Shown: positions 7,431 through 24,663 of the stretch, piece after piece | How positions within the stretch are numbered: position 1 is the stretch's first letter | Layout: each line of letters begins with the position of its first letter | NCBI GenBank assembly: GCA_964631415.1 | Contig: CAZVZC010000001.1 | Coordinates: forward strand, 80,260 to 144,259 | Length of the DNA stretch: 64,000 nt | Direction: 5' to 3' | Source of the DNA: an uncultured archaeon | GTDB taxonomy: Archaea > Asgardarchaeota > Thorarchaeia > Thorarchaeales > Thorarchaeaceae | Made by a program: the position numbers and the translations under genes | Notes under the pieces: generated by a model | Told to the model about the DNA's origin: nothing | What the model saw: only the letters and a program-made list of their open reading frames with translations | Database searches by the model: none

Positions 7431-7695
7431 CATCGTTTCCTTCCTGATTTGCTGACGACATCAGTCTGTGGCTTCCTGTGAGTCGCCAATCCTAGCTGGA
7501 CAGTGTAGTACGGGTTTTCGGATATCCATTGTCAATTAGATGGACTCATGGTTTCTCGAACCATCTAATACACAATCGGACCAAACCACCAACATATCGG
7601 TTTGACGCTTCAAAGAATCCATAAAACTTCAAACGGCCAAGAGAGGCCATGTAAAGGCAATTCACCATCATCAGGTTCCATCACAATCAAGTTTC

Positions 7696-7703
7696 ATTAT
7701 ATA
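7696..7703 (+). promoter_or_regulatory. TATA-box candidate for the 7738 gene
   Basis: ATTATATA lies about 38 nt upstream of the TTG start, which implies a very short leader. Confidence 0.45.
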
Positions 7704-7737
7704 CTCGCATTCCGCGAGCGGCAGTCGGCGATCTTCC

Positions 7738-8925
7738 TTGAAGACACGAACAACATTACTATTCGGAGCGTTTCTCCTTTCTGTGCTTTTGGGACCACTA
7801 ACGATTGCAGCGAATGCCCAGAACCTTGACTCGGGTTACCAGCAGAATCAAGGTTCACAAATGGGGCCGGGTGGACCACCAGAGCAGCACAGAGGTAGCG
7901 ACGGAAGCGTCTGGATAAACACGGACATAATCACGATAATGGCCAATGATGAGTTCCCAATGCTCCACTTCTGGTACACGTCTGATGACAATGGTACTCG
8001 TGCCAAGTTCATGATCTCCTATACCACAATTGTTGAGTTTCAAGACCTCAATGGCGATGGAGCCTTCCAGTCCGATGAGCGTCTTTACTTTGCTCCCCTC
8101 GCTGCATATGATTGGACTGTGACGACTGGTGCAGTCGAAGACAACGGTACTACAACTGAGGTCTGGCTGAAGTACACGAAGGGTGGCATACGCAGTGGAA
8201 ACATGATACCAGGGGCACCCATGTATGGCATGCATGATAATGACTCAGTCCAGCGGTTCGAGGATGTCACGCTGCAGATTTGGGCGCACATATACCTCAC
8301 AGACTACACCGGTAATGTCACGGACGATCATGGTGTAAAGGCCAACTACACCGTGGCTGGCGGGTCGGAGCTGAAGATGGACATTAAGATTGGCAATTTC
8401 CCATTCAGCACTGAAACCTCTGGTGTAGCGATTCAGACAATGCTGAGGGAAAACGAGGCTCCCGGCAACCACGACATGTACCATCACCGGTTCCAGACCC
8501 ACGAGAGGCTTCGTAACGTCAACATGACCTCCGACATGAACTGGAACACCGGGGACGGGAACGAGTCCATGTTCGAGAGGATGAATGGCACTGATGTTCA
8601 GCGCATTCAGTTCATGGATGACATGTCGGACGTTGCGCAGGGTTTCTTCAGCTGGGTGGATCAGGCAGTGATAACTTGGCCCGGAGGAGCAACCGAGGCG
8701 GTCAACGTTACAGCCTCCTACATGCCCACGGGAATGGGTGTGGCTGTCTACTTGGCCTACCCCAACTTCGACAACGGCACACTGACCCACGATCCATCGA
8801 TAGGCCTGTATGAGAGCGGAGTTCCCACTAATACACTGTCCATCGACATGCCCGTTGTCCTTGGGATTGGGTTGCTGGCTGCAGTTGCCATTGCCGTAGT
8901 CGTTCTCCGGAGAAAACAGTGGTGA
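7738..8925 (+). CDS. Secreted, C-terminally membrane-anchored protein with many N-glycosylation sequons (surface glycoprotein candidate)
   Basis: Signal peptide 'MKTRTTLLFGAFLLSVLLGPLTIAANAQ' and C-terminal TM plus basic stop-transfer 'VVLGIGLLAAVAIAVVVLRRKQW'. At least 9 N-x-S/T sequons and a 'DLNGDGAF' Ca-loop-like motif. TTG start. Confidence 0.6.
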   Translation: MKTRTTLLFGAFLLSVLLGPLTIAANAQNLDSGYQQNQGSQMGPGGPPEQHRGSDGSVWINTDIITIMANDEFPMLHFWYTSDDNGTRAKFMISYTTIVEFQDLNGDGAFQSDERLYFAPLAAYDWTVTTGAVEDNGTTTEVWLKYTKGGIRSGNMIPGAPMYGMHDNDSVQRFEDVTLQIWAHIYLTDYTGNVTDDHGVKANYTVAGGSELKMDIKIGNFPFSTETSGVAIQTMLRENEAPGNHDMYHHRFQTHERLRNVNMTSDMNWNTGDGNESMFERMNGTDVQRIQFMDDMSDVAQGFFSWVDQAVITWPGGATEAVNVTASYMPTGMGVAVYLAYPNFDNGTLTHDPSIGLYESGVPTNTLSIDMPVVLGIGLLAAVAIAVVVLRRKQW

Positions 8926-8930
8926 GTAGC

Positions 8931-8964
8931 GTAGTGGACACAGTCCACTACCATTTTTCTTCTT
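8931..8964 (+). terminator. Hairpin plus T-tract terminator candidate
   Basis: Perfect 9-bp stem GTAGTGGAC-ACA-GTCCACTAC starts 6 nt after the stop codon and is followed by CATTTTTCTTCTT. Confidence 0.6.
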
Positions 8965-9036
8965 AACAGAACAATCTTATGGACATAGCAAAATGGAAGG
9001 TACACCTCAGAACCAATAGACATGAAACGATGGTGA

Positions 9037-10038
9037 TTGACGGTGAAAGGTCTGCTGCTAGCTCTGGTAATCATATCACTAGCAGTTCCGATTGCTCTGC
9101 CCTTTCAGGTTCAGGCCGCCGATACTGATACTGTTGTGCTCAATCCTGTAGAAATCCGAGCCATCATGCATGAGAATACGACCAGTACACTGATAGTCGA
9201 TGCACAGGTGAACAACGTAGGTTTGTCATCCATGTCCTCACTCAGTTTCGGTGTTGATTCACTTCAGGTGAATGTCATTACCGCTCAGATTGGCAATGAA
9301 ACAACCGGTGGAGCGACAATCCTGAGAGATGGTTACACCGAAGTCACAGTCACCCTTCCAGACGTTCTGGAAGCAAATTCATCTGTCTGGCTCCATCTAG
9401 CACTCTTAGCCAGCGATCTTCAATCACCCCTCACTGTCGCGCAGGATGCCAGTCTTCTTCGTGGTGACTTCATCTTCTATGTCAGGCCTCTCTCCGTCTT
9501 CGCCAACTTCACGTTCACTGCGGTTCTTCCACCCTTTGCATCTCTATCCCTCGATTCTGTAGTACCCCTCTTTCCTGACTCTGAATCCAACTTCACTGAT
9601 GGCCATTCACTCATATTTGTCTGGGAAGTCCCGCTGCTCCTCCCCGGCCAAGAGCGAGTATTCATAGTCAAGTATCAACTTCCCAACACCTCTACGGTTC
9701 AAACACAGTCTTCACTTCTTGGAAGTCTCCTGTATGGAACACTGGGTGTCATAGCTGGGCTTGCCCTAGCATTCGGTGGGCCGAAGGTGATTGAACGATT
9801 GAGGCACCTCGGAGCCGTAAGATATGTTGGAGTCACAGCTGAAGAAGAGGAGGTCCTCGCGACCATCCGGGAGAAAGGCGGCTCATGTACTCAGAAAGAG
9901 CTCTACAGCCAGTTTGACATGTCGCAGTCGAAGATGAGCCTGATCCTTACTAACCTTGAACAGCGGGGTTTGATTCGAAGACTAAAGGAAGGACGGGAGA
10001 ATGTGGTCCACCTGATGGAGCCCAAGCAACCTGACTAA
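9037..10038 (+). CDS. Membrane-tethered winged-helix (MarR/TrmB-like) protein with a large extracytoplasmic N-terminal domain
   Basis: Signal peptide 'LLLALVIISLAVPIALPFQVQAAD', an extracellular region of about 200 aa, TM 'LLGSLLYGTLGVIAGLALAFGG', then wHTH 'EEEVLATIREKGGSCTQKELYSQFDMSQSKMSLILTNLEQRGLIRRLKEGRENVV'. Start is TTG 9037 or GTG 9043. Confidence 0.6.
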   Translation: MTVKGLLLALVIISLAVPIALPFQVQAADTDTVVLNPVEIRAIMHENTTSTLIVDAQVNNVGLSSMSSLSFGVDSLQVNVITAQIGNETTGGATILRDGYTEVTVTLPDVLEANSSVWLHLALLASDLQSPLTVAQDASLLRGDFIFYVRPLSVFANFTFTAVLPPFASLSLDSVVPLFPDSESNFTDGHSLIFVWEVPLLLPGQERVFIVKYQLPNTSTVQTQSSLLGSLLYGTLGVIAGLALAFGGPKVIERLRHLGAVRYVGVTAEEEEVLATIREKGGSCTQKELYSQFDMSQSKMSLILTNLEQRGLIRRLKEGRENVVHLMEPKQPD

Positions 10039-10048
10039 GAGTCTGACT

Positions 10049-10750
10049 TCACTCCTCGCCTTCTGGACCAAGCCTCTTTCCCGGGGGCAAATCATCCATC
10101 AATAGTCTTTCAGACTCTGCCTTTCTTACAGCCGCTGTGGCCTTCTCACCGCCGATATTCTCCAGTGCGCCGGCTGCAGTCTGCCTGACGAACATTGATT
10201 CATCATGCAAGACACTTATCAGTGGCTCAACAGCAGCGGTGTTCCTCCTTTCACCGAGCTGGGCAGCAGCGAGAATGCGCACCATGTATCTAGGATCTCT
10301 CAGGCAGCTGATGAGTTGTGCTGTTGCACGTGGGTCGTCCATACCCCCAAGACGTTCAATGGCACCAAGCGAAACCTGTTCGTCATCGCTCCGCACCTCA
10401 GCCGCAAGGTCGTCGATGATGGAACTCTGATCTGCCAGACTTCGAGGGACTCTTTCAGATATTACTACTCTGTGTGCAATCTCCTCTGGGGCCTTCTGCT
10501 TCTTGGCACGAGTCGGAGCAGTTCGGGGAGTCTTGGTCTTCTCTGCTTTCACCACTTTTCTAGCGGGACCTTTCTTCTTGCTTGCCGCAGGAGCCCTGCT
10601 TTTTGTTTCTCCTCTCTTCTCACCCTTATTGACGCTTGATGCCTTTGGCAACTCTCTATCTCCGGGCCTTGATGAGGACGCAATGCCGGTCCGCAGCTGC
10701 TCTAATAAAGAGTCTGAGTCCACTTCGTCACAGCAAAAACGCCTTAACAC
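10049..10750 (-). CDS. HEAT-repeat (PBS-lyase type) protein with a lysine-rich disordered N-terminal tail
   Basis: Repeats 'DPRATAQLISCLRDPRYMVRILAAAQLGE / AAVEPLISVLHDESMFVRQTAAGALENIG'. The N-terminal part is 'KKKGPARKVVKAEKTKTPRTAPTRAKKQKAPEE'. Confidence 0.6.
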   Translation of the reverse strand: MLRRFCCDEVDSDSLLEQLRTGIASSSRPGDRELPKASSVNKGEKRGETKSRAPAASKKKGPARKVVKAEKTKTPRTAPTRAKKQKAPEEIAHRVVISERVPRSLADQSSIIDDLAAEVRSDDEQVSLGAIERLGGMDDPRATAQLISCLRDPRYMVRILAAAQLGERRNTAAVEPLISVLHDESMFVRQTAAGALENIGGEKATAAVRKAESERLLMDDLPPGKRLGPEGEE

Positions 10751-12838: not shown

Positions 12839-13396
12839 CTAGAGTGCCTCGGGGGTTTCCTCTCCTTCTTGGTCCCCAGAAAGAATACGCTTCAGTTGGA
12901 ATTTCAGCTGTGCCTTGAGTCTGACCTTGTCTGAATCAAGGCCAAAGTAGTCAGAGAAGAGCTGAGTTGTCGTGAGCATCTTGCTCCGGCCCTCTGCCAC
13001 AGCATCTACGAACTTCTTCTCCTCGAGTTCCTTCACATGATCATAGACATGAGTGCCCCTCTGGGCAACAAGGTCCGACTGTAAGATAGGCTGTTTGAGG
13101 GCAATGTACACCAAGGTCTGAAGAGTGCCAAATGAGAGGAGTCCACCAGGTATCAGTCTTCCTACCCGAGTGGTCAGTTCGGGTTTGAGCTGCAACACAT
13201 ACCTGTCCCTCGGCAAGTCCACAACCTCCAATGCCCCACCGCGCTGGTGATACTCGAAGTTCAGGTCATCCAGAAGCTTCTTTGCGGTAGACTCTGCCTT
13301 TCCAATAATGTCTGCCAGCTCCTGCAGTGTCATTGGTCTGCCCGCTACATAGAGCGCCGCCTCGAGTGTCACTAGGTCGTCATTCAAGCATATCAC
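12839..13396 (-). CDS. scpB: Segregation and condensation protein B (ScpB)
   Basis: 'LEAALYVAGRPMTLQELADII' wHTH repeats. ATGA-type overlap with scpA. Confidence 0.8.
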   Translation of the reverse strand: MICLNDDLVTLEAALYVAGRPMTLQELADIIGKAESTAKKLLDDLNFEYHQRGGALEVVDLPRDRYVLQLKPELTTRVGRLIPGGLLSFGTLQTLVYIALKQPILQSDLVAQRGTHVYDHVKELEEKKFVDAVAEGRSKMLTTTQLFSDYFGLDSDKVRLKAQLKFQLKRILSGDQEGEETPEAL

Positions 13397-14112
13397 CTAG
13401 CCCTCACATGCGGCTTGACCCCTTCTGAGGGCTTCTCCGTTTCTTCGGGCGGAGGCACTAGCTTGACCCATATCACGCTCTTCTTGTCCATCCAGAGGTC
13501 AATGAATGCTCTAGCATAGAGATGCAGCAATGAGAAGAAGATGCGAACTATCTCTCTTCGCGTGTTATTGACCAGTAGGTCAGTGAACCTGACGACTTCG
13601 CCCACTTTGACAATCTTCCAGATGTCCGCATACACCTCAGCGATGGTTTCCTCGATGTTCACCCGGGACGTATCCATGCTGAAAGATAGGGGTTCTGCCT
13701 CTGACCTTCTGTATCGCGACTGAGGAATTGGCCGCTCTCTTATGCCCTTGCTCAGGACTCGGTCCATTGCCATGAGTAGTTCCTGCAGGGTCACTCTTCT
13801 GTTTGTAAGTCTGAAAGGCGGTAGTATCTGGGGGATTGCAAGTTCCTCTTCCTCCTCGTCTACTTCGGGAGGAATCAGGCCGAGTTCCACGAGGTCTCTG
13901 GTCTTCTTCATGAAGATGACTGATGCAGAGTAGAGAGCATTTCCTGAAACTCGGAAGTCAATGTCCCCCATTCTTCTCATTTCTTGCAGAAAGCTTGCAA
14001 CGAGCTTCCCGACATCCACGTTCCAAGGTTCGATGTTGTCCAGCTGAAGGACATCGGTCAGGAGGATGTAGGGTGGCGAGGCCCAGAAAGGCGTATCATC
14101 ACTCGTGCTCAC
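13393..14112 (-). CDS. scpA: Segregation and condensation protein A (kleisin ScpA)
   Basis: 'PWNVDVGKLVASFLQEMRRM...FRVSGNALYSASVIFMKKTRDL'. Sits in an operon with smc and scpB. Confidence 0.8.
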   Translation of the reverse strand: MSTSDDTPFWASPPYILLTDVLQLDNIEPWNVDVGKLVASFLQEMRRMGDIDFRVSGNALYSASVIFMKKTRDLVELGLIPPEVDEEEEELAIPQILPPFRLTNRRVTLQELLMAMDRVLSKGIRERPIPQSRYRRSEAEPLSFSMDTSRVNIEETIAEVYADIWKIVKVGEVVRFTDLLVNNTRREIVRIFFSLLHLYARAFIDLWMDKKSVIWVKLVPPPEETEKPSEGVKPHVRAR

Positions 14113-17100
14113 GCTGACTCAGCCACCTCCTGAAGGTCCACTGAAACTATTCTGGATATGCCATCTTGGTTTGACACACCAATGAGCATGTCAGCTTTTC
14201 GTACTGTGGTATCCCTGAGCGACACAACTATGAACTGAGAGTTCTTGGACATCTCTGATATCAACAATGCAACGTTGTGCGCATTGACGTCGTCCAAGGC
14301 TGCATCTATCTCATCAAAGACATAGAAGCTTGCGGGGTTGTGCATCTGGATGGCGAAGATCAGTGCCAAGCCGGTGAGTGTCTTTTCCCCGCCGCTCATC
14401 GCATCAAGAGAAACCAGCTCTTTGCCTGCAGGCTTGGACCTGACAGTGATGCCTCCCATCAATGGATGTTCGGCGTTCTCTAGCATCAGGTTGGCCTCGC
14501 CGCCAGGTGATAGCTTGGTAAAAACCTTCGAGAAGTTGTCCGCTATGCTGTTGTATACCTGAAGGAACTTCTGAGTCTTCTCCTTCTCTAGCTCCTCCAT
14601 GAAGGACAGTATCTCTTTGTGTTCCTTCTCAAGCTGTGTCTTCTTCTCGACAATTTCGTCGTATCTTCCCTTTTCAGTGTCATAGTCTGTGAGCGACTTC
14701 AAGTTGACTGGACCCATTGCCTCGAGTTCTCTCTCAATCTCTTTGATATTCTCTTCGAGGTCCTCAATTGCTTTGGCAGTCAGCTCACGTTGTCCTGCTC
14801 TCTTCTCAAGCTCTGTTTCCACGTCGGTCACTGCACCAAGCTGAGCAGTTAGTCCGACCAGATCGGTTTCCAGACGTGAGCGTTCTACTTGGAGCCTGTA
14901 GACCGCTTTCTCATTTCCGGTCTGCGACTCCTTGATCTCTTCCTGCTTCAGCCTAAGGTTTCTGATGGTTTCCTTCAGTTTCAGCTGCCGTACTCGCTTA
15001 TCCTTGACTGCCGTGTCAATCTGTTCCCTCTCCGACTTCAGTTTGAGAAAATCGCTTTCTTTTGCCCTGAGGTCGGCCTCAATAGATGTAGCATCCTCTT
15101 CCAGACTCGGCAATACTGCCTCCAGTGACGCGATTCGGTGTTCCAGTTCTACTGACTTGGGCAAGTATCTCTCTTGAATCGAAACTCTCAGTGCGGAGGT
15201 CTCGGTCCGAATCCTCTCGTGGTTTCGCTTGTGCTGTTCCAGGACCTCCTTCAGATCTCTCAGGTCCTGATTCAGCTTGGCCGTACCTGACTTTGCCAGT
15301 ATTTCGTTGCACTGGTCTCTCTGTTCTCTGACTCTCTCTCTCTGAGCAGTGAGCTCCTCATCTCGAGTCCTGAGCTCAGATATCTGTCGCTCCAGTTCCT
15401 CAATCGTGACTCTTGCCTTGTCTATCTTCTCTTTCAGTTTCTGTGCTTTTTGCTCCCTGTCCCTGAGTTTCTCCTCCAAGCCCTTCAGTTCCAGCCCGTC
15501 CCTGTAATTCCGCTTAGAAATTTCTTCAATCTCACGGTCAAGTGCCTTTTTCCTGCCCAAGAACTCCTCCTGCTGTTCTTGCAGCTCAGACAGGATGTCC
15601 TCAAGGCCCTTGAGGCGTGAAATCACGTCTGGGCTCGTGTCCTCCTCTTGAAGTGAGAGACCCGTTGAATCTCTATGGAAGTGTCCTCCAGTGATCAGCC
15701 CCGAGCGTTCTACCAAGTCACCCTCCAACGAAACCGCTCTACAGTTGTCGAAACCCATGGCCTTTGCGGTATCGAAGTCCTTAGTCACAAGTGTGTCCGA
15801 GAATACGAATTCAAAGGCAGGACGCATCTTTGGGTCAAAGGTCACAAGGTCCAGTGCATAGCCTATCACACCCTCTTTCTGTGGCTTCCGACTCGGTCTT
15901 CGTGTCTTTATCCTGTTGAGTGGGATGAACGAGGCCCGTCCTACTCGCTCTTTCTTAAGCACATCAATACATCGAGTGGCCACATCCTCATTCTTTACGA
16001 CTATGTGGGACAGCCTGTTACCCGCCGCCACTTGCATGGCTGTAGCATAGTCGGGGTCTATTACTCCCAGTTCTGCTACTGTACCGTAGACCCCGTCAAT
16101 CTCTCCCTTGTCACGTAGTTCAAGCACTCTGGCCAAGGCTCTCCGGCGTTTCAAGAACGCCTCTTCGGCCTCTCTCAATGCATCCTGACGAGCCTGCAGC
16201 TTAATGAGTTCTTCCTTTGTCGAGGTAACGAGCTTGCTGCTCTCACTCACCTGCGCGTCCACTGTGGTAAGTTGCCTCTCAGTGTCCTCAAGTTCCTGCC
16301 GCCTTGCCACTTCGGACTCCTGTAGTCTTTGAAGGGCTGTAGTCTTTGCCGGAACGATGGAGCCGAGTTCTGACAGTTCCTCGTCTGTCTTCTTCAGGGA
16401 ATCCTCAGCATCGCGTAACTCCTCATATGTGAGCCCCAGTTCCTTACTATCTGATTTGATGGTAGACCTGATTTCAGTCACACCCTCATCGAGGTGCGCC
16501 ATCTGTGTGTTGAGGTCCTGAAGCCTTAGAGTGGCTTCATAGTATGCAGACTGCTCTCTTTCAAGAAGACCATCGAGTCGTGCGATGTCAGTTGAACATC
16601 CTAGGATCTCCTTGTCAAGACTCTCAAGACCGAGCTCCTTCTCCTTGATTGCATACTCCGCAGCGGTCATCTGGTCTTTCGTGGAACCTAGTTGCTTCTC
16701 AAGTGTGTCCCGTTCTTGTCTGGTTCTGTCATAATCACTCTTCGCACGATCCAGTTTGCTCCGGAAGTGTTCAACTTCTGCAGTCATGGTACCATACTGC
16801 TCAGAAACCCTTGAGGCGTTTCCACCGGTTATCAGGTCAATCTCCTGTTCTATCTCTTCAATCTCAGACTCGGTCTTGGCCATGTCTGCTTCGACCTTGG
16901 TCAGCTGCTTGGCAAACCTCTCAGCGTCTGCGGCTCGATCCGCAAGTGTTTCGTCTATCGTACTCGTCCGGTTCTTGGACTTGATGACTGTCCAAGTCAC
17001 GCTCTCGATCTTGGTCTGCTGTATCTGATCACGTAGACCCGTGTAGCGGAGGGCGTCCTTCCTTTCTGCTTCCAGCCGCTCCAGCTGGTGACGACGTTCT

Positions 17101-17699
17101 TGGAGCTGCGTTTCGACCTTGCCTAGGTTGGTTTCACTCTCTGCGAGCTTCTTGAGCGCCTTCTCTTTCTGCTCGTCATAGGCTGATATGCCTGCAATCT
17201 CCTCAATGAGCTTCCGTCGTTCGATCGGGCTGACTTTGACCATCTGGGCAATCTCGCCTTGGAGTACAAGATTGTAGCCATTTGGGTCAACGCCTATGCC
17301 GCCGAGGATATCTATCACGGCCGCACGGGTGACCATCTTGCCGTTTATCCTGCAGACTGACTTACCAGACTCGTCCAGCTCTCTCTCAACAACGACTCTG
17401 TCGGCATCGATTTGCAGTTTTCTGTCCCTGTTGTTGAAGCAAAGCTCTACAACGGCCGACTTGGCCTTTGGAGGCATGTCTGGCTTGGGAGGACTATAGA
17501 GCAGCTCCGAGAAGACATTCGCACGCAATGTCTTGGCACTCAGCTGCCCAAGCACAAAGAGAATCGCATCAATGACATTAGACTTGCCTGACCCGTTCGG
17601 CCCGACGATACAGGTGAAGCCAGGACTGAGGTTAATCGTGACGGTGTCCCGGCCAAATGACTTGAAGCCTTTGCATACTAGCTTCTCGATGTGGACCAA
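14109..17699 (-). CDS. smc: Chromosome segregation ATPase SMC
   Basis: 1196 aa with Walker A 'GPNGSGKSN', long coiled coils, a hinge, signature 'LSGGEKTL' and Walker B 'FYVFDEIDAALD'. Confidence 0.95.
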   Translation of the reverse strand: MVHIEKLVCKGFKSFGRDTVTINLSPGFTCIVGPNGSGKSNVIDAILFVLGQLSAKTLRANVFSELLYSPPKPDMPPKAKSAVVELCFNNRDRKLQIDADRVVVERELDESGKSVCRINGKMVTRAAVIDILGGIGVDPNGYNLVLQGEIAQMVKVSPIERRKLIEEIAGISAYDEQKEKALKKLAESETNLGKVETQLQERRHQLERLEAERKDALRYTGLRDQIQQTKIESVTWTVIKSKNRTSTIDETLADRAADAERFAKQLTKVEADMAKTESEIEEIEQEIDLITGGNASRVSEQYGTMTAEVEHFRSKLDRAKSDYDRTRQERDTLEKQLGSTKDQMTAAEYAIKEKELGLESLDKEILGCSTDIARLDGLLEREQSAYYEATLRLQDLNTQMAHLDEGVTEIRSTIKSDSKELGLTYEELRDAEDSLKKTDEELSELGSIVPAKTTALQRLQESEVARRQELEDTERQLTTVDAQVSESSKLVTSTKEELIKLQARQDALREAEEAFLKRRRALARVLELRDKGEIDGVYGTVAELGVIDPDYATAMQVAAGNRLSHIVVKNEDVATRCIDVLKKERVGRASFIPLNRIKTRRPSRKPQKEGVIGYALDLVTFDPKMRPAFEFVFSDTLVTKDFDTAKAMGFDNCRAVSLEGDLVERSGLITGGHFHRDSTGLSLQEEDTSPDVISRLKGLEDILSELQEQQEEFLGRKKALDREIEEISKRNYRDGLELKGLEEKLRDREQKAQKLKEKIDKARVTIEELERQISELRTRDEELTAQRERVREQRDQCNEILAKSGTAKLNQDLRDLKEVLEQHKRNHERIRTETSALRVSIQERYLPKSVELEHRIASLEAVLPSLEEDATSIEADLRAKESDFLKLKSEREQIDTAVKDKRVRQLKLKETIRNLRLKQEEIKESQTGNEKAVYRLQVERSRLETDLVGLTAQLGAVTDVETELEKRAGQRELTAKAIEDLEENIKEIERELEAMGPVNLKSLTDYDTEKGRYDEIVEKKTQLEKEHKEILSFMEELEKEKTQKFLQVYNSIADNFSKVFTKLSPGGEANLMLENAEHPLMGGITVRSKPAGKELVSLDAMSGGEKTLTGLALIFAIQMHNPASFYVFDEIDAALDDVNAHNVALLISEMSKNSQFIVVSLRDTTVRKADMLIGVSNQDGISRIVSVDLQEVAESA

Positions 17700-17893
17700 G
17701 GCACCATCCCTTCCGGCTCCCTAGATGGCCAGTTCTCGACAGAGGCGTGTCTGACTATTATCTGGGGAATACAGGACCCTAAATACGGTTGGTATGACGG
17801 TGGTAATACCATGAGTAATACCCAGGTATTCCCATCTGGGCGAACGCGCTTGCATAAAGCTACAAAAAGATAGCTCTGAAACCTACCTTCGCA

Positions 17894-18301
17894 CTATGAC
17901 TTGACCATCAACATGAGCGCGCGCTTGAGCGCGATTCTGAGAAGGCCCATTGACTCTTTCGCGCCTTCTCCGGCGATTGCAGCAAGGACGAGTTGGACAT
18001 CACCCAAGACTATGACATATCCCTTGTCCGACGCTATACTAATCTCCTTTAGAATGCCCTTGTCAACCGCCGTGACTAGTTGCGACGAGTTCGCAGATAT
18101 CTTGGCGATTAATGCTGCAACGTCTGTGTGTTTGATTCCAGCCGTAACGGTGTGACCGAACAACACCTTGCCCTTATCATCACAAACCACAATGCCCTGT
18201 ATGTCAGCATTTGCCGCCATGGTCTGTGCCACGACTGACTCTATCTTGGCCTTGTCCACCATCGTGACAGTCCTCCGAAGATTTTCACCCGCTGTCATCA
18301 T
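17894..18301 (-). CDS. Roadblock/LC7 (MglB-like) domain protein, paralogue 1
   Basis: 'IQGIVVCDDKGKVLFGHT...DVAALIAKISANSSQL...GYVIVLGDVQLVLAAIAGEGA' fits the Roadblock pattern. Start is placed at ATG 18301/18298 because the ATATAAA TATA box lies about 22 nt upstream, suggesting a leaderless transcript. Confidence 0.75.
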   Translation of the reverse strand: MMTAGENLRRTVTMVDKAKIESVVAQTMAANADIQGIVVCDDKGKVLFGHTVTAGIKHTDVAALIAKISANSSQLVTAVDKGILKEISIASDKGYVIVLGDVQLVLAAIAGEGAKESMGLLRIALKRALMLMVKS

Positions 18302-18319
18302 GTAGAGGTCTCTGAGATG

Positions 18320-18326
18320 TTTATAT
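18320..18326 (-). promoter_or_regulatory. TATA-box candidate for Roadblock paralogue 1
   Basis: The minus strand reads ATATAAA centred about 22-25 nt upstream of the tandem ATGs at 18301/18298. Confidence 0.45.
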
Positions 18327-18579
18327 CTTCTGTGCTGACATCTCGCTATGACAGAGTTATCCTCACACTCCACTTATGACGATGCTACGACCGTTCAGTG
18401 TGAGTTGGATGAAGTCGGACACAGGAGTTTTTCCATCCAGAGCCGGCACTTCGGCTGTACATCCTACTTGCCTGTTAAGTCCGTGGTTCCTCAGTGTACA
18501 GAAGCGGAAACATCAGCAATTGACTTAAAGCACAATGGGCCGCATCTGATTAGTGATAGTCTTCTGAGGGATAGTATCG

Positions 18580-20205
18580 ATGCCCATGCTTAGAACCAGT
18601 TCAGAGGCCTTTCCAGCCTCGAAAGACATGATCAGTGAAATTCCATATGTCCTGCGTGTTGAGTTTAGAGACCTCGCACGCGACGTAACAAGAATCACAG
18701 GAATGCCAATCGCATGCCACAAATGTAACGGCTTTCTGATGAGCGTCGACCAGATTGTTGAGGACAGGAAGATCGGGAAGCACTTTGTCTGCCCCTTCTG
18801 TGGCACCTTGAATGTGATTGCAGGTGAAGTGGTCTTTGCCGGCTCAGACACGGATTTCGTCATCAAGCCAGCTCCCGACAAGACCGAAACCACTACAGTC
18901 GCGTCTGCTGGCGGTAGGTCATTCTTGGCCGTGATTGATGTATCCGGCTCAATGGCTGGGGCCAATCTGGCAGCAGTGAAGAGGAGTCTGACCACCTCTG
19001 TTGAGAGCCTAGTCGCGAACACTCCCGATACGCTCTTCGGGTTGATCGAGTTTGAGAGTTCTGTTCTGTTTCGCAATATGGAAACGGGCGAAGCCGTGCA
19101 GCTTCCAAGAGAGTCCTTTGCGAGCTTCGAGGCTATCACTGAAGCCGCACGAAAACTCATGGACAGAATCAAGCTTGTCAAGGTGGGTGGAAATGCTGGC
19201 ACTCTAAAGCGTCACATCAATGCCCTGAGAGAGCAGGGTGGGACCGCTCTTGGCCCTGCGGTAGCCATGGCGTGTATGATTGCCAAGCACCGAGGTGTAG
19301 GCAGGGTGATTCTTCTTACTGACGGACTTGCGAACGAAGGCATTGGCGCTCTTGAGGGCTACCAAGTCACTCCTGGAAACAAGTACTATGAAGACCTAGG
19401 ACGTCTGTTCAAAGACAATGGCACAGCGATCGATGTAGTTGGAATCGCCACTGGTGCAGGAATGGAGCTGAGAACACTGGGCCTGATGCCAGAGGCCACC
19501 GGTGGCCAGATGTACTATGTCACGCCAAATGAACTCGACAAGAGCCTGTCAGAGCTAGCGGGAGCATCGCTGCTCGGTCGCGATGTTCAAGTCCGACTTC
19601 TTACTCCGGTAGGCGTGAAGGTCAAGGACGCTTCAGGAATATCAAGGGCCGTTGTGGAAGAACTCAGGACGAAGAGCGAGAGCAAGATAGGGGTCGTGGG
19701 TGAGAATCACGAGCTCTATTTTGAGGTGGAGCCCGAGAGCAAGCTCAAAGCCAAGGAAGTCCCCATCCAAGTGCAGGTGGAGTACACTGACCAAGATGGG
19801 TCCAGACGGATGCGTACTTTCACCAAGAAGCTGCGGGTCACTTCAGATGAGAAGGAGCTCGTGAAGACAATGGACCCGACCATCGGCGCCACTTTCGTTG
19901 TTCAGAAGGCTGGAGAGGAGGCCCTAGGCGGCGGTCGTGCCGCCGGCATGACTCGGATTGCCAGTTTCAGGGCTGCAATGAAGGAGAAGGCCAAGGCCGC
20001 ACCGGCGCCAGTACAGGCGAAGCTGCAGAGGGCCGATGATGCGCTTGCCTCCGAAGAGGAGAACATGGAACGCCAGGAAGCAGCAGTGGGCGGTGCGCGA
20101 CCGGGGGCACCATCAGCCGCAGCCGATCAAGCAGTCACCGAGAACTTGGCCCAAATGAGAAAAGCGTCCAAGGCGCTCTTTCACGACGAAGAGGATGAGA
20201 AGTAG
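18580..20205 (+). CDS. Sec23/24-like protein: Zn-finger, vWA 'trunk', beta-barrel, then a disordered acidic tail; no gelsolin domain
   Basis: Zn-finger 'CHKCNGFL-x17-CPFCGTLN'. Trunk/MIDAS 'SFLAVIDVSGSMAG...LFGLIEFESSV...GGTALGPAV...RVILLTDG...YYEDLGRLFKDNGTAIDVVGIA...ATGGQMYYV'. Barrel 'ELYFEVEPES...IQVQVEYTDQDGSRRMRTFT'. These are colinear with the human SEC23A motifs as I remember them. Confidence 0.65.
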   Translation: MPMLRTSSEAFPASKDMISEIPYVLRVEFRDLARDVTRITGMPIACHKCNGFLMSVDQIVEDRKIGKHFVCPFCGTLNVIAGEVVFAGSDTDFVIKPAPDKTETTTVASAGGRSFLAVIDVSGSMAGANLAAVKRSLTTSVESLVANTPDTLFGLIEFESSVLFRNMETGEAVQLPRESFASFEAITEAARKLMDRIKLVKVGGNAGTLKRHINALREQGGTALGPAVAMACMIAKHRGVGRVILLTDGLANEGIGALEGYQVTPGNKYYEDLGRLFKDNGTAIDVVGIATGAGMELRTLGLMPEATGGQMYYVTPNELDKSLSELAGASLLGRDVQVRLLTPVGVKVKDASGISRAVVEELRTKSESKIGVVGENHELYFEVEPESKLKAKEVPIQVQVEYTDQDGSRRMRTFTKKLRVTSDEKELVKTMDPTIGATFVVQKAGEEALGGGRAAGMTRIASFRAAMKEKAKAAPAPVQAKLQRADDALASEEENMERQEAAVGGARPGAPSAAADQAVTENLAQMRKASKALFHDEEDEK

Positions 20206-20393
20206 ATTCCGAATGAGTCCTCTCTTTCAGAGAACCGCGCACTTCATCGCGAGATGGGTTTGTCCGGATCCGTGAGGTGTGCGGCCCCTCTTGCCAGCCA
20301 GAACATTGGCGCGGTCCGTTATCAGAATGCGCAATTGGTCCGTTGAGAAGACCCTGTTGCCACAAGTCTCAAATACCCAAGCGTGGGGTAGGA

Positions 20394-20732
20394 ATGCTAA
20401 ATGCACAATTGACAGCAGCGGGGATTCTACAGTTGGTTAGCCAAGACAAGCTCCGGTCGATTCTCTCTAAGATCAAGGCGCAAGGAGGAGTCCGAGGAGT
20501 TGTGGTCACAAATATGGAGGGCTTGCCACTTAGCAGCGATCTAGACCCCGAAACGACTGAAGCTGTCGCCGCCATCATAACCTCCCTCGTGGGCAAGGCA
20601 CTTGATGCAGTGAGAGAACTCCGAGAGGGGTCTCTGTCATTCCTGACCCTCGACACATCTAAGGGTCAGATTAACATAGCACCCGATGTGAAAGAGGGGT
20701 TAATACTAGTAGTCCTGAAGAAACCGAGCTGA
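20394..20732 (+). CDS. Roadblock/LC7 domain protein, paralogue 2
   Basis: 'VRGVVVTNMEGLPLSSDLDPETTEAVAAIITSLVGKA...LSFLTLDTSKGQINIAP...LILVVL'. Start is placed at ATG 20394. The upstream part of the tracked ORF is Cys/Pro-rich and implausible. Confidence 0.75.
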   Translation: MLNAQLTAAGILQLVSQDKLRSILSKIKAQGGVRGVVVTNMEGLPLSSDLDPETTEAVAAIITSLVGKALDAVRELREGSLSFLTLDTSKGQINIAPDVKEGLILVVLKKPS

Positions 20733-20747
20733 AAGGAGAACGATGAC

Positions 20748-21215
20748 ATGAGCGATCCAAAGGTCTTCGACAAGATCCTCACTGAGATCATCCGCCAAGA
20801 CAAGGGCATAAAGAAGGTAATCCTTGTAGACAAGACTGGGCTGACAATCGCAAATGTCAGCAAGCTCAGCTACTTCCCGATTGACACAGATTCGATAGGC
20901 GCGATTGCGAGCGCGGTGTTTTGCGCCAGCGAGGAACAGGGGAAGAACCTACAGATCGGAGAGCTTGAGATTGTTACCTCTGAGTTCTCAGAAGGTAAGA
21001 TATTCGCCTCTGCATGCGGCAAGGGTGTCCTGTGTGTTGTTTCCGAGTCCGAGGTGAACATTGGCCTCATCCGGCTCATCATGAAGAAGCAGGGTGTTCA
21101 GCTCGCAGAAGAGTTGGAGAAGTTCTTGGCAGTCGAACCCACAGCACCGTCAAAGGGCAAGGAGCTGGACGAAGAGGATCTGAAGTCTGCTCTGGCAGAG
21201 CTCGAAAAGGTATGA
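20748..21215 (+). CDS. Roadblock/LC7 domain protein, paralogue 3, with an acidic C-terminal helix
   Basis: 'IKKVILVDKTGLTIANVS...IGAIASAVFCASEEQGKNL...GKIFASACGKGVLCVVSESEVNIGLI'. It starts 15 nt after paralogue 2. Confidence 0.75.
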   Translation: MSDPKVFDKILTEIIRQDKGIKKVILVDKTGLTIANVSKLSYFPIDTDSIGAIASAVFCASEEQGKNLQIGELEIVTSEFSEGKIFASACGKGVLCVVSESEVNIGLIRLIMKKQGVQLAEELEKFLAVEPTAPSKGKELDEEDLKSALAELEKV

Positions 21216-21462
21216 GCCCGCGCTGGTCGCCGGAACTGACCTGTCAACTCAGCTCTTGTCTACTTAACGGACAAAGGCTTTTATGAGAGTACAATGTTAC
21301 CACAGCCAGTTACCCGATTTGGGATGCCCGGCTCGGGGACTGATACTTGGCTCTCAGAGCATGAGAATTGCCCGGTGGTACGTACTCTCACACTGGTGGT
21401 GTTTCTGCGCCACCATGGCAGGGACAGTCCACAAGAACAACATAGCACCGAGGTGTTGAAAC

Positions 21463-22026
21463 GTGCGCAAGGATGACAAGGGCAGGATTCATCTCAAGCT
21501 GGTTTTCTATGGCCCGAGCCTAGGCGGCAAGACGACTGCGCTACGTTGGCTGTACGGAAAGGTTGAGGGTCTCCAGAAGGGAGAGTTTACAGCAATCGAA
21601 GATGAAACAAACCGAACCCTGTTCTTTGACTACGTACCTATGAGCGCGGGAGGTCGTGTCCTCTTTGACGTGTTCACCGTCGCAGGACAGAAGCGACACA
21701 GGCATCAGAGGAAGGTTGTGCTCCAAGGGACTGACGGGATACTGTTCGTTGCGGACTCATCTCCCGACCAGCGAGAGGAGAATGTTGAGAGCTTCGAGGA
21801 ATTGAAGCTGTTCTTAGGTGATGTATTGGGCCGTGATATTCCCATTGTAGTCATGCTGAACAAGCGTGACCTGCCCAACAGGATGTCTCGTGATGAGATG
21901 CTTGATCTACTGGGACTCGGTGGCAACGTACCGATCTACGAAACCATCGCCGTTCAGGGCGTAGGAGTTAAGAGAGCCTTCCAGGCCATAGCACGGGAAG
22001 TCATCCTTAAGAGAATGTACAAGTGA
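21463..22026 (+). CDS. MglA-type small Ras-superfamily GTPase
   Basis: G1 'GPSLGGKTT', switch-I Thr in 'NRTLFFDY', G3 'FTVAGQ' (Thr in place of the Ras Asp, as in MglA), G4 'NKRD' and G5-like 'ETIAVQG'. GTG start. Confidence 0.8.
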   Translation: MRKDDKGRIHLKLVFYGPSLGGKTTALRWLYGKVEGLQKGEFTAIEDETNRTLFFDYVPMSAGGRVLFDVFTVAGQKRHRHQRKVVLQGTDGILFVADSSPDQREENVESFEELKLFLGDVLGRDIPIVVMLNKRDLPNRMSRDEMLDLLGLGGNVPIYETIAVQGVGVKRAFQAIAREVILKRMYK

Positions 22027-22036
22027 ATGCACCTAG

Positions 22037-22417
22037 GTGAGTCTGATGAGCGAGTCGCGGGGCGATACACTCGAGGGAGTCCTGAACGAGCTGCAAGGCA
22101 GTATTCCTGAGATTGAGGCCTGTGCCATAGTGAGTGTTGAGGGGCTTCCGATAGTTTCAGCCCTGCCAACCGACGTTGATGAGGCGAAGCTCGCAGCGAT
22201 AACAGCAGCGATGTTGACACTGGGTGAAAAAGCAGCGGTCGAACTGGGAAAGGGCAATCTTGAACAGGTCAATGTGAAGGGTGTCAATGGTTGGATACTT
22301 GTGATTCAGGCGGGGATGAACGCATGCCTCACAGTGTCAACCACAGCCAATGCGAAGCTTGGTCTTGTATTCCTTGACATGAAACGAGCTGCAGAGAAGG
22401 TAGCCCAACTCATCTGA
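22037..22417 (+). CDS. Roadblock/LC7 (MglB-like) domain protein, paralogue 4
   Basis: 'IEACAIVSVEGLPIVSALPTDVDEAKLAAITAAMLTLGEKA...GWILVIQAGMNACLTVSTTANAKLGLVFLDM'. It starts 10 nt after the GTPase stop. Confidence 0.8.
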   Translation: MSLMSESRGDTLEGVLNELQGSIPEIEACAIVSVEGLPIVSALPTDVDEAKLAAITAAMLTLGEKAAVELGKGNLEQVNVKGVNGWILVIQAGMNACLTVSTTANAKLGLVFLDMKRAAEKVAQLI

Positions 22418-22506
22418 TTCCTTGGACACCTCAGCATCAAGCCTATTAGGCCATCCAATCTCTCACCTCACAGACAGGTCGTCCCATAAACAGGTCGTGG
22501 TGTTCG

Positions 22507-23274
22507 TTGAACTTCGCCGGGCCGGTGTACAGGCTCTATGAATACTGGCTGTACAAGCAGCTGAGTAAAGAGAAGGCGCCTCGACATGTAGGCATAATAC
22601 TCGACGGTAATCGTCGCTATGCTCGTGAGCATGGTTTCGACGTGCCATGGATGGGGCATCACAAGGGCGCACAGAAAGTCATGGAGGTCCTGCGGATTCT
22701 CTGGGAGGCCGGTGTTAAGGTGTGCACGCTCTATGCCTTCTCAGTTGAAAACTTCCAGAGGAGCAATGAAGAGGTCAAAGAGATAATGACAATCGCCCGG
22801 AAGAAGTTCGCTGATGTCATTGGCAACCCAGATGTTCACAAGCACAAGGTCCGTATCAAGGCCATTGGTCGGGTTGACCTCTTGCCCCCAGAGGTAGCGG
22901 AGGCAATCCACAAGGCCGAGGCCGAAACTGAGAAGTACACTGATCATATCCTGAATGTCGCCATTGGATACTCGGGGAGAGCTGAGCTGGTAGATGCAGT
23001 CAGGGCCATCGGCCAGATGATCAAGGCCGGAGAGATATCTCCCTCTGATGTGGACGAGCAAGTGATTGAGAGTCACCTGTACACTAATGGAGTCCCGGAC
23101 CCGGACCTCATAATCCGAACATCCGGCGAAGAAAGGCTCTCGGGCTTCCTTCTTTGGCAGTCTGCTTATTCAGAGCTGTACTTTGCACAGGTATACTGGC
23201 CTGCAGTGAGGCGCATTGACATCTGGCGGGCCTTGCGGTCATACGAACTACGTTCTCGCAGATTCGGCAAGTGA
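22507..23274 (+). CDS. uppS: cis-prenyltransferase (undecaprenyl/di-trans,poly-cis-polyprenyl diphosphate synthase)
   Basis: 'PRHVGIILDGNRRYAREHG' and 'IRTSGEERLSGFLLWQSAYSELYF'. TTG start; there is no ATG before the catalytic motif. Confidence 0.9.
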   Translation: MNFAGPVYRLYEYWLYKQLSKEKAPRHVGIILDGNRRYAREHGFDVPWMGHHKGAQKVMEVLRILWEAGVKVCTLYAFSVENFQRSNEEVKEIMTIARKKFADVIGNPDVHKHKVRIKAIGRVDLLPPEVAEAIHKAEAETEKYTDHILNVAIGYSGRAELVDAVRAIGQMIKAGEISPSDVDEQVIESHLYTNGVPDPDLIIRTSGEERLSGFLLWQSAYSELYFAQVYWPAVRRIDIWRALRSYELRSRRFGK

Positions 23275-23412: not shown

Positions 23413-24663
23413 ATGGCTTTGGTCAGGACTCCAATCGAAGTCTACAGAGGGCTGGTCCGGACGCATCTTGGTGACGAGTTGCCAACACACCTTAGGGCTG
23501 TCACTGATCGATTCTCAGAGGGAACATTCGCTGGTCAGAGCACATCAGGCCACTTGACGAGACTCCTGACATTGTTCTGTCGGTTCATGGCATACCTTGA
23601 CTCTAGAGAAGTCGCCAACTTATCCGATCTCACTCGCGCAGTAGACTTGCTTGATTACTTCGCATCGACCTCTAAGTGGTGGTCAATAACAAGAAAGGCG
23701 CCTGGGCTAGTGCTTAGGCCGCCATCACATGACCCGCATGAATTCATGGAATCTCTTGCCGCTGTCCAGCTTGGCAACGAAACGCTTAGTCGTATCGCTG
23801 GCTCTACCGAGAAAATGTCACAGTACCTAGAAGAGCATGGCATAGCTGAGTCACGCACTAAATCCGATTTGTGTGAGAGTTTCGCCTCAGTCTGGGCGGT
23901 CATGAGCGCAATCGTTTCGAAGAGTCAGGGACGCACTGTAACCTCAGAGAACGACTTCGAAGTGGGATATGATGTGATTCGGGTGCTGTTGTTCTACAGC
24001 TCAGTCGATGACTTCAAGGCGTTGACTGCCATCCGAACTGTGGGCACGAACCCCAAGATGCATCGAGCTGCGGGCGTGTCCTTGGCACCCGGTTTCGAAC
24101 GAAAGCTGGACTCTTCGGCGATAGCTCGACTCGAACGGCTACACGGCGAGAGTCTGTCGAAGCTCGCAGGATTGACGTCGGGAGCCGGCCGTTCCATTCT
24201 CACAAACTCCCTCCGGTTTCTTGCTCAGCAGCTGGCAGTAGAGCGGGCTTTCATGAAAGTTGAGGAGCAAAGCTATGAATCTACGATAGCAGCAGCATTA
24301 GTTGCGCTCAGGAATGTCGGCATTCCATCTGGGCTCTTTCAGGAGGAGTCTGCAGTAGTCAGCCTCTTCAAGAGCCTCAAACCCTCAGATGATATCGGGG
24401 AGCGAATCGGTTTCCTGATGAGACGTTTCGAAGGCCTGATTGCTGACTCCGCAGGCAGTCGTGAGTTTCTGCTGCAGCATTCTCGGCTGGTACCTCAGCT
24501 GGTTTCATTGCTGCTACTTCTCGCTTCTGGGACTAAGCCGAAGCTTGAGGGCGGGCTCCAAGATCCCGACCTAAAGAGAGGCCTGATTCTGCTTGAGCAA
24601 CTGCTCAACGACTTGGGCTCTGTGTCTTCTTTGTCTCCTCAATCAGAATTCTCGCATCGATGA
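23413..24663 (+). CDS. Hypothetical protein, predicted all-alpha, no recognisable motif
   Basis: 416-aa ORF with coding-like composition and helix-favouring Leu/Ala/Glu/Arg-rich sequence. No catalytic, TM or metal motifs. Its 3' end overlaps acdB by 59 nt. Confidence 0.5.
   Translation: MALVRTPIEVYRGLVRTHLGDELPTHLRAVTDRFSEGTFAGQSTSGHLTRLLTLFCRFMAYLDSREVANLSDLTRAVDLLDYFASTSKWWSITRKAPGLVLRPPSHDPHEFMESLAAVQLGNETLSRIAGSTEKMSQYLEEHGIAESRTKSDLCESFASVWAVMSAIVSKSQGRTVTSENDFEVGYDVIRVLLFYSSVDDFKALTAIRTVGTNPKMHRAAGVSLAPGFERKLDSSAIARLERLHGESLSKLAGLTSGAGRSILTNSLRFLAQQLAVERAFMKVEEQSYESTIAAALVALRNVGIPSGLFQEESAVVSLFKSLKPSDDIGERIGFLMRRFEGLIADSAGSREFLLQHSRLVPQLVSLLLLLASGTKPKLEGGLQDPDLKRGLILLEQLLNDLGSVSSLSPQSEFSHR

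Follow-up and report, generated by a model that had tools for sequence, protein, structure and literature searches.

The locus described here raises the question of whether a gene for a Sec23/24-like protein, lying among genes for a small GTPase and four Roadblock/LC7 proteins, forms one functional unit with them. The locus occupies positions 17,894 to 22,417 of a 64,000-nucleotide (nt) stretch, hereafter the window, of contig CAZVZC010000001.1 (assembly GCA_964631415.1, positions 80,260 to 144,259 of the forward strand) from an uncultured archaeon of the Thorarchaeaceae. A preliminary description, made from the sequence alone, had proposed that the six genes encode a self-contained GTPase switch coupled to a coat-adaptor-like protein, that is, an analogue or precursor of a machine of the coat protein complex II (COPII) or Ragulator type. 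Our analysis leads us to another view: the locus is probably composite, and consists of an old, Asgard-wide module of one MglA-type GTPase and four Roadblock proteins, into which a lineage-specific Sec23-like gene was inserted later.

The layout of the locus and the nature of its products are as first described. The six open reading frames (ORFs), their order and the gaps of 278, 188, 15, 247 and 10 nt across the cluster agree exactly with the ORF list, and matches in Pfam, Foldseek and the Protein Data Bank (PDB) identify a Sec23/24-like protein, a small GTPase and four Roadblock paralogues, which we call Rbl1 to Rbl4 in their order along the DNA. The 64 kb of the window contain no GTPase or Roadblock gene beyond these five. 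Since they are the only such genes in the window, and since the arrangement of the Rbl and MglA genes recurs across Asgard lineages, the clustering of the GTPase and Roadblock genes is not due to chance.

Evidence that the Sec23-like gene has a different history comes, firstly, from the distribution of the cluster. In about 60 species-level metagenome-assembled genomes (MAGs) of Thorarchaeota, the genes for ScpA, SMC and Rbl1 lie divergently from those for the Sec23-like protein, Rbl2, Rbl3, MglA, Rbl4, undecaprenyl/cis-prenyl diphosphate synthase (UPPS), a 416-amino acid (aa) ORF and two ACD subunits; that the window belongs to Thorarchaeota follows from a contig of the Thorarchaeota MAG OWC3, whose copies of these genes encode proteins with 93-100% identity. 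Because the housekeeping flanks are as conserved within Thorarchaeota as the cluster genes, this conservation reflects general synteny and carries little information, and it illustrates that conservation of a neighbourhood inside one class can mislead. Outside the core Thorarchaeota the Sec23-like gene is missing from the cluster. The complete genome of Freyarchaeum deiterrae (L088) has ScpA, SMC and Rbl1, then Rbl2, Rbl3, MglA and Rbl4, with UPPS nearby, and loci L091 and L094 have Rbl1 opposite Rbl2, Rbl3, MglA, Rbl4 and UPPS; none of the three contains the Sec23-like gene. The same is true of L093, a Thorarchaeota-level relative, in which the full syntenic block from ScpB to ACD is present and 282 nt separate Rbl1 from Rbl2. 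With SMC 59% and MglA 92% identical to their counterparts in the window, L093 is as close to it as the most divergent Thorarchaeota genomes that do carry the Sec23-like gene. Jordarchaeales (L090) have Rbl2, Rbl3, MglA and Rbl4 without Rbl1 or the Sec23-like gene, and Heimdallarchaeota (L089) have only Rbl3, MglA and a displaced Rbl4, again without the Sec23-like gene. According to tblastn, each Rbl paralogue and MglA are one-to-one orthologous in Freyarchaeum, L091, L093 and L094, with Rbl1 at the same position in all four, and MglA orthologues with 59-65% identity were found across Asgard.

Secondly, homologues of the Sec23-like gene occur elsewhere in other surroundings. Their flanks contain no MglA or Roadblock gene in any of seven lineages (A361, L069, Hermod, Freya, Hod, P0131 and P0138); the homologue in MAG A361 (locus L064) is 47% identical to the window protein, and Freyarchaeota possess both a Sec23-like homologue and the MglA cluster, unlinked. 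The Sec23-like gene lies inside the cluster only in core Thorarchaeota. The expected conservation of the neighbourhood was therefore found for the GTPase and Roadblock genes, which recur as a module in several Asgard lineages, but not for the Sec23-like gene, which is not integral to that module: it is absent from clusters that keep the SMC/ScpA and UPPS flanks (L088 and L093), and its homologues elsewhere are unlinked. The simplest reading is a single insertion into the spacer between Rbl1 and Rbl2 in an ancestor of the core Thorarchaeota.

Some further observations concern these homologues. L093 and L064 resemble each other in tetranucleotide composition (r = 0.96) and GC content (0.537 and 0.550), and the two loci may derive from a single lineage in which both genes are present but unlinked. 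In L096 (P0138), 14 nt are shared by the Sec23-like gene and a gene for a WD40 protein, and an AIM24-family gene lies two genes upstream (6601-10049); an AIM24 gene also follows a generic VWA gene in L072 (7845-9991). We considered the L096 WD40 protein as an outer-coat analogue and rejected it, because it carries a signal peptide and a Cys-rich region and ends in a membrane anchor. The proteins of L072-L078 were likewise rejected as family members; they are generic VWA proteins (23-29% identity), some of them bacterial.

Judged by its sequence, the GTPase of the cluster is of the MglA type, nearer to MglA than to other branches of the Ras superfamily. A phmmer search of the PDB matched it best to solved MglA structures (1e-38, 136 bits), against 1e-12 (51 bits) for the best Arf, and its score for the Pfam family Gtr1_RagA (14.9 bits) is below the gathering threshold (GA) of 22. 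Its G3 motif, FTVAGQ, aligns with YTVPGQ of Myxococcus xanthus MglA, a TxxGQ motif that has Thr for Asp and contains the catalytic Gln; the switch-I Arg is present (ETNRTLFFD, aligned with ETDRTLFFD), as is the NKRD motif. In M. xanthus MglA this Arg, Arg53, is an intrinsic arginine finger (PMC3199381, as cited in PMC10933270). The sequence lacks an N-terminal amphipathic helix of the Sar1/Arf type. The constraint on MglA is exceptional, as its median identity to the window protein across Thorarchaeota species is 97%, compared with 90% for Rbl3, 88% for Rbl4, 79% for Rbl2, 78% for UPPS, 69% for the Sec23-like protein, 66% for Rbl1 and 65% for SMC. The start codon of mglA, on the other hand, is variable: GTG in the window is replaced by ATT, TTG, ATA or ATG at the aligned position of orthologues. 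The start always lies 5-8 nt past a conserved GAGGTG (Shine-Dalgarno) sequence. The mglA leader, of about 75-170 nt, begins at a conserved TATA-like box. These features may indicate translational control of this highly conserved protein.

The four Roadblock proteins are one short (Rbl2) and three long (Rbl1, Rbl3 and Rbl4) paralogues that are highly divergent from each other: pairwise phmmer E-values range from 1e-3 to 5e-5, and Rbl1 has no match among the other three. Rbl2, Rbl3 and Rbl4 score 57.8, 42.2 and 61.5 bits for Pfam Robl_LC7 (PF03259), above its GA of 23. Rbl1, at 22.4 bits, falls just under this cut-off, and was therefore modelled structurally. The AlphaFold2 (AF2) model, built from 20 orthologues (mean confidence, pLDDT, 74.5), has the element order H-E-E-H-E-E-E-H of an alpha-beta-alpha sandwich, and Foldseek superposes it on Roadblock2/3 of Prometheoarchaeum MK-D1, MglB and LAMTOR2 with template-modelling (TM) scores of 0.75-0.84, those for Roadblock2/3 and MglB being 0.77-0.84; a profile search of the PDB matched 9jq8 at E 2e-10. 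The model thus identifies Rbl1 as a Roadblock fold. Because its orthologues measure 121-123 aa, Rbl1 probably starts at the Met at 18262, which would shorten the protein to 122 aa and widen the divergent spacer to 317 nt. Rbl2 passes the Pfam threshold of LAMTOR5 (29.4 bits, GA 27), and matches the 94-aa archaeal structure 7f8f at 1e-23 and dynein DYNLRB at 1e-13. In the case of Rbl3, the match to MAPKK1_Int (LAMTOR3/MP1; 31.8 bits) is above the GA of 25, that to MglB in NCBIfam is weak, and among PDB entries MglB is the best non-Asgard match (8e-7), with LAMTOR2 at 4e-3. Rbl4 matches Thor-RB 7f8m at 2.5e-24 and MK-D1 Roadblock3 9jue at 1.7e-17. Crystal structures of Thor and Loki Roadblocks and of a Thor Rab have been published (PMC10933270), and Rbl1 and Rbl4 resemble solved Asgard Roadblock homodimers. 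We rejected the possibility that Rbl4 is the crystallised Thor-RB itself; 7f8m is a paralogue at 88.7 bits, while the SMTZ1-45 orthologue is 85% identical.

A separate observation on Rbl1 is that it lies about 190 nt upstream of, and co-directional with, SMC-ScpA(-ScpB) in Thorarchaeota, L093 and Freyarchaeum, an arrangement not kept in Jordarchaeales, Heimdallarchaeota or L094. The Roadblock/MglA module may be linked in this way to chromosome segregation.

We infer that this module, comprising one MglA and four anciently diverged Roadblocks arranged as the pairs Rbl2-Rbl3 and MglA-Rbl4 plus the divergent Rbl1, works like bacterial MglA/MglB. MglA would supply its own Arg finger and catalytic Gln, and Roadblock dimers would dock on the switch face and control both where MglA is and which nucleotide it carries, acting as GTPase-activating protein (GAP) and/or guanine nucleotide exchange factor (GEF), in line with PMC3199381, PMC11016934 and PMC13408092; the last of these mentions an AlphaFold3 model of a Thor MglA-MglB pair. 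Rbl3, MglB-like and with a C-terminal extension, and Rbl4 would be the best GAP/GEF candidates, and the short, LC7-like Rbl2 could offer a helix-binding platform. Several paralogues might provide layered regulation, as MglB and MglC do in Myxococcus and LAMTOR2-5 in Ragulator.

The module has points in common with both of these systems. With MglA/MglB of M. xanthus and Thermus thermophilus it shares the TxxGQ motif, the intrinsic switch-I Arg, NKRD, adjacent Roadblock genes and, in Rbl3, likeness to MglB that includes the C-terminal extension. It differs in having four diverged Roadblocks where those bacteria have one MglB (plus MglC), in its archaeal host, in its gene order, in the unusual conservation of MglA within the class, and in that no RomR/RomX/RomY or Frz genes were seen. 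The likeness to Ragulator-Rag lies in four Roadblock-fold subunits of short and long design next to a linked small GTPase. However, Rag GTPases pair as heterodimers and carry C-terminal Roadblock domains, whereas the Thor GTPase is an MglA with a single domain; among archaeal Roadblocks, the closest ones with a solved structure are homodimeric, unlike the LAMTOR2/3 and LAMTOR4/5 heterodimers; and the cluster shows no gene for a LAMTOR1-like scaffold, for which no specific search was made.

The 541-aa Sec23/24-like protein has Pfam matches in the canonical Sec23/24 order to zf-Sec23_Sec24 (aa 43-80; 18.7 bits, below the GA of 25), Sec23_trunk, the VWA domain (aa 115-315; 38.5 bits, above the GA of 27) and Sec23_BS (33.3 bits against a GA of 33.5); its eukaryotic relatives P0163 and P0171 pass the GA for the zinc finger. 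The protein is thus not one of the generic bacterial VWA proteins without a zinc-finger or beta-sandwich match, for which the preliminary description had left room. N-terminal strands precede the zinc finger; after the beta-sandwich come a helical region and, at the C-terminal end, an acidic tail. The zinc-finger Cys residues and the complete metal ion-dependent adhesion site (MIDAS) are invariant in 23 Thorarchaeota orthologues, and such conservation of the MIDAS suggests that the protein binds an acidic ligand through a metal ion. When the AF2 model (pLDDT 69, predicted TM score 0.65) was compared with the PDB by Foldseek, the top 44 matches were to Sec24 and Sec23 only (E 1e-20 to 1e-13, TM 0.40-0.53), with the best, at 1e-20, to Sec24b; then follow a bacterial VWA protein, Sulfolobus ArnAB (8s05; E 1e-11) and an ArnB paralogue (5a8j). 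No match to Sec23_helical (PF04815) appeared in Pfam up to an E-value of 1; in the model, residues 433-527 contain four helices, and the Foldseek alignments span 530-640 columns. The orthologue in the SMTZ1-45 MAG is already annotated as a "SEC24 family transport protein". With regard to the acidic tail (…LFxDEEDEK), which is conserved and closes a protein with an intact MIDAS, one may speculate that it could be an intramolecular pseudo-ligand of this site.

Sec23 is the GAP of Sar1, and the Arg finger that it uses on Sar1 is part of its gelsolin domain. Pfam found no gelsolin domain in the Thor protein, which stops at residue 541, past the helical region; it would therefore lack the Arg finger and could not act as a Sec23-type GAP, a role that we consider unlikely. 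Asgard Sec23-like proteins have also been reported to lack both the gelsolin domain and the Sar1-contact residues (PMC11914678). This 2025 study modelled three such proteins and tested them by co-immunoprecipitation, so that the statement that they had only been noted bioinformatically is outdated. Their interaction with an Asgard Arf was weak and independent of the nucleotide; the study includes no gene-neighbourhood analysis.

A search with a profile of the Thor protein against 1.84 billion cluster representatives revealed its closer kin. Some 40 full-length archaeal clusters, among them named ones of Hermod, Freya/Sigyn and Hod, were followed by many proteins of 550-950 aa at E 1e-28 to 1e-40. 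These longer members are eukaryotic: exact look-ups identified "circularly permutated Ras protein 1-like" (cpRAS1) proteins of the echinoderms Diadema and Acanthaster, and others belong to Dictyostelium, Pyxidicula, Entamoeba, Platysulcus and Chrysoparadoxa. According to Pfam, they share the zinc-finger/VWA/beta-sandwich module. By BLASTP, the window protein is 25% identical to the Diadema cpRas1-like protein over 498 aa (E 9e-41), colinearly, and 25% identical to an Entamoeba VWFA protein over 512 aa (E 1e-43), and the signature CxxC...CxxC, DxSGSM, TALGP and TDGxxNxGxG is invariant from Thorarchaeota to eukaryotes. The Thor profile scores 110-155 bits on the cpRAS1/zf-VWA family, versus 25-32 bits on true Sec24 chains; in sequence, the Sec23-like protein is thus much closer to the non-GTPase half of cpRAS1 than to Sec23/24. 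In 19 of the 149 best-scoring family representatives, phmmer with H-Ras, together with Pfam on P0164, found a Ras domain at the N-terminus, its motifs in permuted order. This domain (G3-G4-G5-G1-G2) is absent from the Thor protein, which begins directly with the strands before the zinc finger. The eukaryotic family was described by Elias and Novotny in 2008 with no function assigned (PMC2430557), and a full-text search, beyond whose reach many subscription papers lie, found no literature joining Asgard proteins with cpRAS.

How the cluster is transcribed bears on whether its genes act together. We aligned the regions upstream of the Sec23-like gene and of Rbl2 from 13 Thorarchaeota loci and the window, and took gap statistics over Thorarchaeota loci, with 48-59 loci per junction. 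A conserved box, ATTGACTTAAA, lies 5' of the Sec23-like gene. The elements AATGCGCAA and CCACAAGTCTAAAATACCCAA precede Rbl2 in Thorarchaeota loci, and also in L093, which is without the Sec23-like gene, while CCACAAAGGCTTTTAT[GT]AGAC is kept before MglA even where 0.6-3.9 kb split it from Rbl3. Oligo-T tracts occur between the Sec23-like gene and Rbl2 in many, more AT-rich, loci. Two junctions are tight: Rbl2-Rbl3 (median gap 15 nt in 55 loci, without any interruption above 600 nt) and MglA-Rbl4 (median 7 nt; above 600 nt, at about 780 nt, in only two of 48 loci). The gap between the Sec23-like gene and Rbl2 has a median of 153 nt and exceeds 600 nt in one of 59 loci (maximum 609 nt); that between Rbl4 and UPPS has a median of 74 nt and is never above 250 nt. 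Between Rbl3 and MglA, the median is 235 nt and 17 of 52 loci have insertions of 0.6-3.9 kb. Rbl2-Rbl3 and MglA-Rbl4 are probably bicistronic. Because the conserved boxes are separate, the pairs tight and the insertions placed between Rbl3 and MglA, the plus-strand genes would form three transcription units, the Sec23-like gene, Rbl2-Rbl3 and MglA-Rbl4, with Rbl1 separate. The sequence AATGCGCAA, of which the 64-kb window has two copies, may be the binding site of a regulator.

The Rbl3-MglA spacer is an insertion hot-spot of Thorarchaeota. It has received unrelated genes, namely those for a TetR protein, an S-adenosylmethionine-dependent methyltransferase and a Zn-ribbon protein in L017 (10605-14385) and one for a CLC chloride channel in L024 (10576-14505); the insertion in L013 (10604-12183) is an ORF of 392 aa that Pfam does not recognise.

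According to the composite reading that we favour, the Sec23-like gene would have entered the divergent Rbl1-Rbl2 spacer in the ancestor of the core Thorarchaeota; it would be transcribed from its own promoter, and its product would most likely be a cytosolic, metal-dependent protein-binding adaptor and not a Sec23-type GAP; a link to MglA, if there is one, would be that of an effector or adaptor. Several points weigh against this reading. Insertion in Thorarchaeota, as opposed to loss elsewhere, is a parsimony argument alone. The assignments of promoters and terminators are based on conservation and not on transcripts. The solved close relatives of the cluster Roadblocks, including the Asgard ones, are all homodimers. 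Finally, the Sec23-like gene lies beside Rbl2, at no more than 609 nt, in all 59 Thorarchaeota loci that have both; this unbroken adjacency and the eukaryotic Ras fusion could reflect a real coupling, and the adaptor could be more integral than we suppose. For the same two reasons, namely adjacency unbroken since its acquisition and the fusion, we do consider a coupling of the Sec23-like protein to MglA, while regarding it as rather unlikely.

One alternative is that the Sec23-like gene stands next to the MglA cluster by chance and encodes a signalling scaffold of the ArnA/ArnB type, acting in a phosphorylation- or metal-dependent pathway. This we regard as possible, if doubtful. The Foldseek matches to ArnAB and to the ArnB paralogue agree with it, as would the gene's own putative promoter and the varying genomic context of its homologues in other Asgard lineages. 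The archaellum regulators ArnA and ArnB of Sulfolobus combine a VWA domain, a beta-sandwich, a helical bundle and a zinc-finger module, and have been described as sharing the Sec23/24 core arrangement (PMC12852372). However, their zinc finger resides on a separate FHA protein and their regulation is based on phosphorylation, while the Thor protein has no ArnC/D-type kinase context and its sequence similarity to ArnB is marginal, far below that to cpRAS1 (8s05 scores 16-18 bits). The window contains no FHA, kinase or phosphatase partner, and a weak His-phosphatase match was seen beside the A361 homologue only.

A second alternative, which we think unlikely, sees in the Sec23-like protein an archaeal equivalent of that half of cpRAS1 which is not the GTPase; it would do in trans what cpRAS1 does in cis, serving the MglA-Roadblock switch as an effector or adaptor that depends on its MIDAS. 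The fusion to a circularly permuted Ras domain, found in Diadema, Acanthaster, Dictyostelium and Pyxidicula among others, gives independent, if indirect, support to a link with GTPases. The Thor protein is colinear with the C-terminal half of cpRAS1 over some 500 residues and, like cpRAS1 and the stand-alone zf-VWA proteins, contains the full-length zinc-finger, MIDAS-VWA, beta-sandwich and helical module. Furthermore, no gene ever splits the Sec23-like gene from Rbl2, unlike Rbl3 from MglA. On the other hand, the GTPase fused to the eukaryotic proteins belongs to the Ras family and not to MglA, and most eukaryotic and all archaeal members of the family have no fused or adjacent GTPase. The adjacency in Thorarchaeota is a single evolutionary event, and UPPS is held as tightly. 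Small GTPases are numerous in Asgard genomes (5-13 Arf-like ones alone in each, PMC11914678), so that proximity to one is not rare.

The proposal that all six products form one machine, with the Sec23/24-like protein as coat adaptor and GAP on a Ragulator-like platform, is very improbable: the Sec23/24-like fold with zinc finger, trunk and beta-sandwich, the adjacency kept in about 60 species and the LAMTOR5 and LAMTOR3/MP1 matches of Rbl2 and Rbl3 favour it, but Freyarchaeum, L091, L093 and L094 have all the other genes of the cluster without the Sec23-like one (Jordarchaeales misses Rbl1 as well), homologues of the Sec23-like gene in other lineages have no GTPase or Roadblock gene beside them, the units would have separate promoters, the GAP lacks its gelsolin domain and Arg finger, and the GTPase is neither Sar1/Arf nor Rag, has an Arg finger of its own and lacks the amphipathic helix. 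With the COPII coat itself the Thor protein shares a predicted layout in which N-terminal strands are followed by a C4 zinc-finger motif, a VWA trunk, a beta-sandwich and a part modelled as helical; unlike Sec23/Sec24 it has an intact MIDAS, and the locus has no Sar1, Sec13/31 or Sec12, nor any outer-coat gene. To see a COPII-type machine here was therefore an over-reach.

Earlier work has already covered MglA/MglB switches as well as the Roadblocks and Sec23-like proteins of Asgard archaea; neither the five-gene cluster nor the cpRAS1 link was found described in a search outside which many subscription papers lie, the 2017 Asgard paper included. The near-invariant MglA and its four Roadblocks, often beside SMC-ScpA, are a target for five-protein reconstitution, and the five-gene cluster offers an archaeal comparison for Ragulator and for MglB/MglC. 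The kinship with cpRAS1 alters the choice of eukaryotic descendant and tempers the reading of the Sec23-like proteins as direct ancestors of Sec23 (PMC11914678). Ras fusion in eukaryotes and adjacency to the MglA cluster in Thorarchaeota are together a testable hint of GTPase coupling, and Arf may have been the wrong partner in the earlier experiments. If such coupling were true, the partnership of a small GTPase with a zf-VWA-beta-sandwich protein would be ancient, taking the form of adjacency in Thorarchaeota, fusion in cpRAS1 and Sar1-Sec23 in COPII, and the four-Roadblock/MglA cluster would be a pre-eukaryotic, Ragulator-like regulatory platform. Binding of the zf-VWA protein to MglA, or to a different small GTPase, would make the locus far more interesting.

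Table 1. Features of the locus and its flanks; positions are those of the window
Feature	Position	Strand	Remarks
ScpA gene	13393-14112	-	Flank, upstream side
SMC gene	14109-17699	-	Flank; kept beside Rbl1 in Thorarchaeota, L093 and Freyarchaeum
Rbl1	17894-18301	-	Roadblock paralogue; 135 aa from ATG 18301
Box ATTGACTTAAAGC	18518-18531	+	TATA-like; about 50 nt upstream of the ATG of the Sec23-like gene; putative promoter
Sec23/24-like gene	18580-20205	+	541 aa
C4 zinc finger	18715-18801	+	C46, C49, C71, C74; CxxC-x21-CxxC
VWA/trunk domain	about 18922-19524	+	Intact MIDAS: D120-x-S122-x-S124, T222, D248
Beta-sandwich	19582-19842	+	aa 335-421
Acidic tail	20160-20202	+	End of the Sec23-like protein
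Box AATGCGCAA	20326-20334	+	Putative Rbl2-Rbl3 promoter region, about 65 nt before Rbl2; second copy in the window at 423-431
Element CCACAAGTCTCAAATACCCAA	20360-20380	+	BRE (B recognition element)/TATA-like; putative Rbl2-Rbl3 promoter region
Rbl2	20394-20732	+	Short Roadblock; dynein-LC7, "RBLC7" or LAMTOR5-like type
Rbl3	20748-21215	+	Long MglB/LAMTOR2-3-like Roadblock; C-terminal extension
Rbl3-MglA spacer	21216-21462		Insertion hot-spot in Thorarchaeota
Element GACAAAGGCTTTTATGAGAG	21270-21289	+	BRE/TATA-like; upstream of mglA with a long leader; putative separate transcription unit
mglA leader	21270-21462	+	
mglA	21463-22026	+	MglA-type small GTPase; 187 aa, GTG start
Rbl4	22037-22417	+	Roadblock; 10 nt 3' of mglA
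UPPS gene	22507-23274	+	Downstream housekeeping flank; orthologue matches Pfam Prenyltransf
416-aa ORF	23413-24663	+	No Pfam match

An Rfam scan of positions 17600-22600 gave nothing meaningful, its one snoRNA match scoring 17.6 bits against a gathering score of 90. Downstream of UPPS, the 416-aa ORF is present in all Thorarchaeota loci and in L093, and is fast-evolving, with a median identity of 49%.

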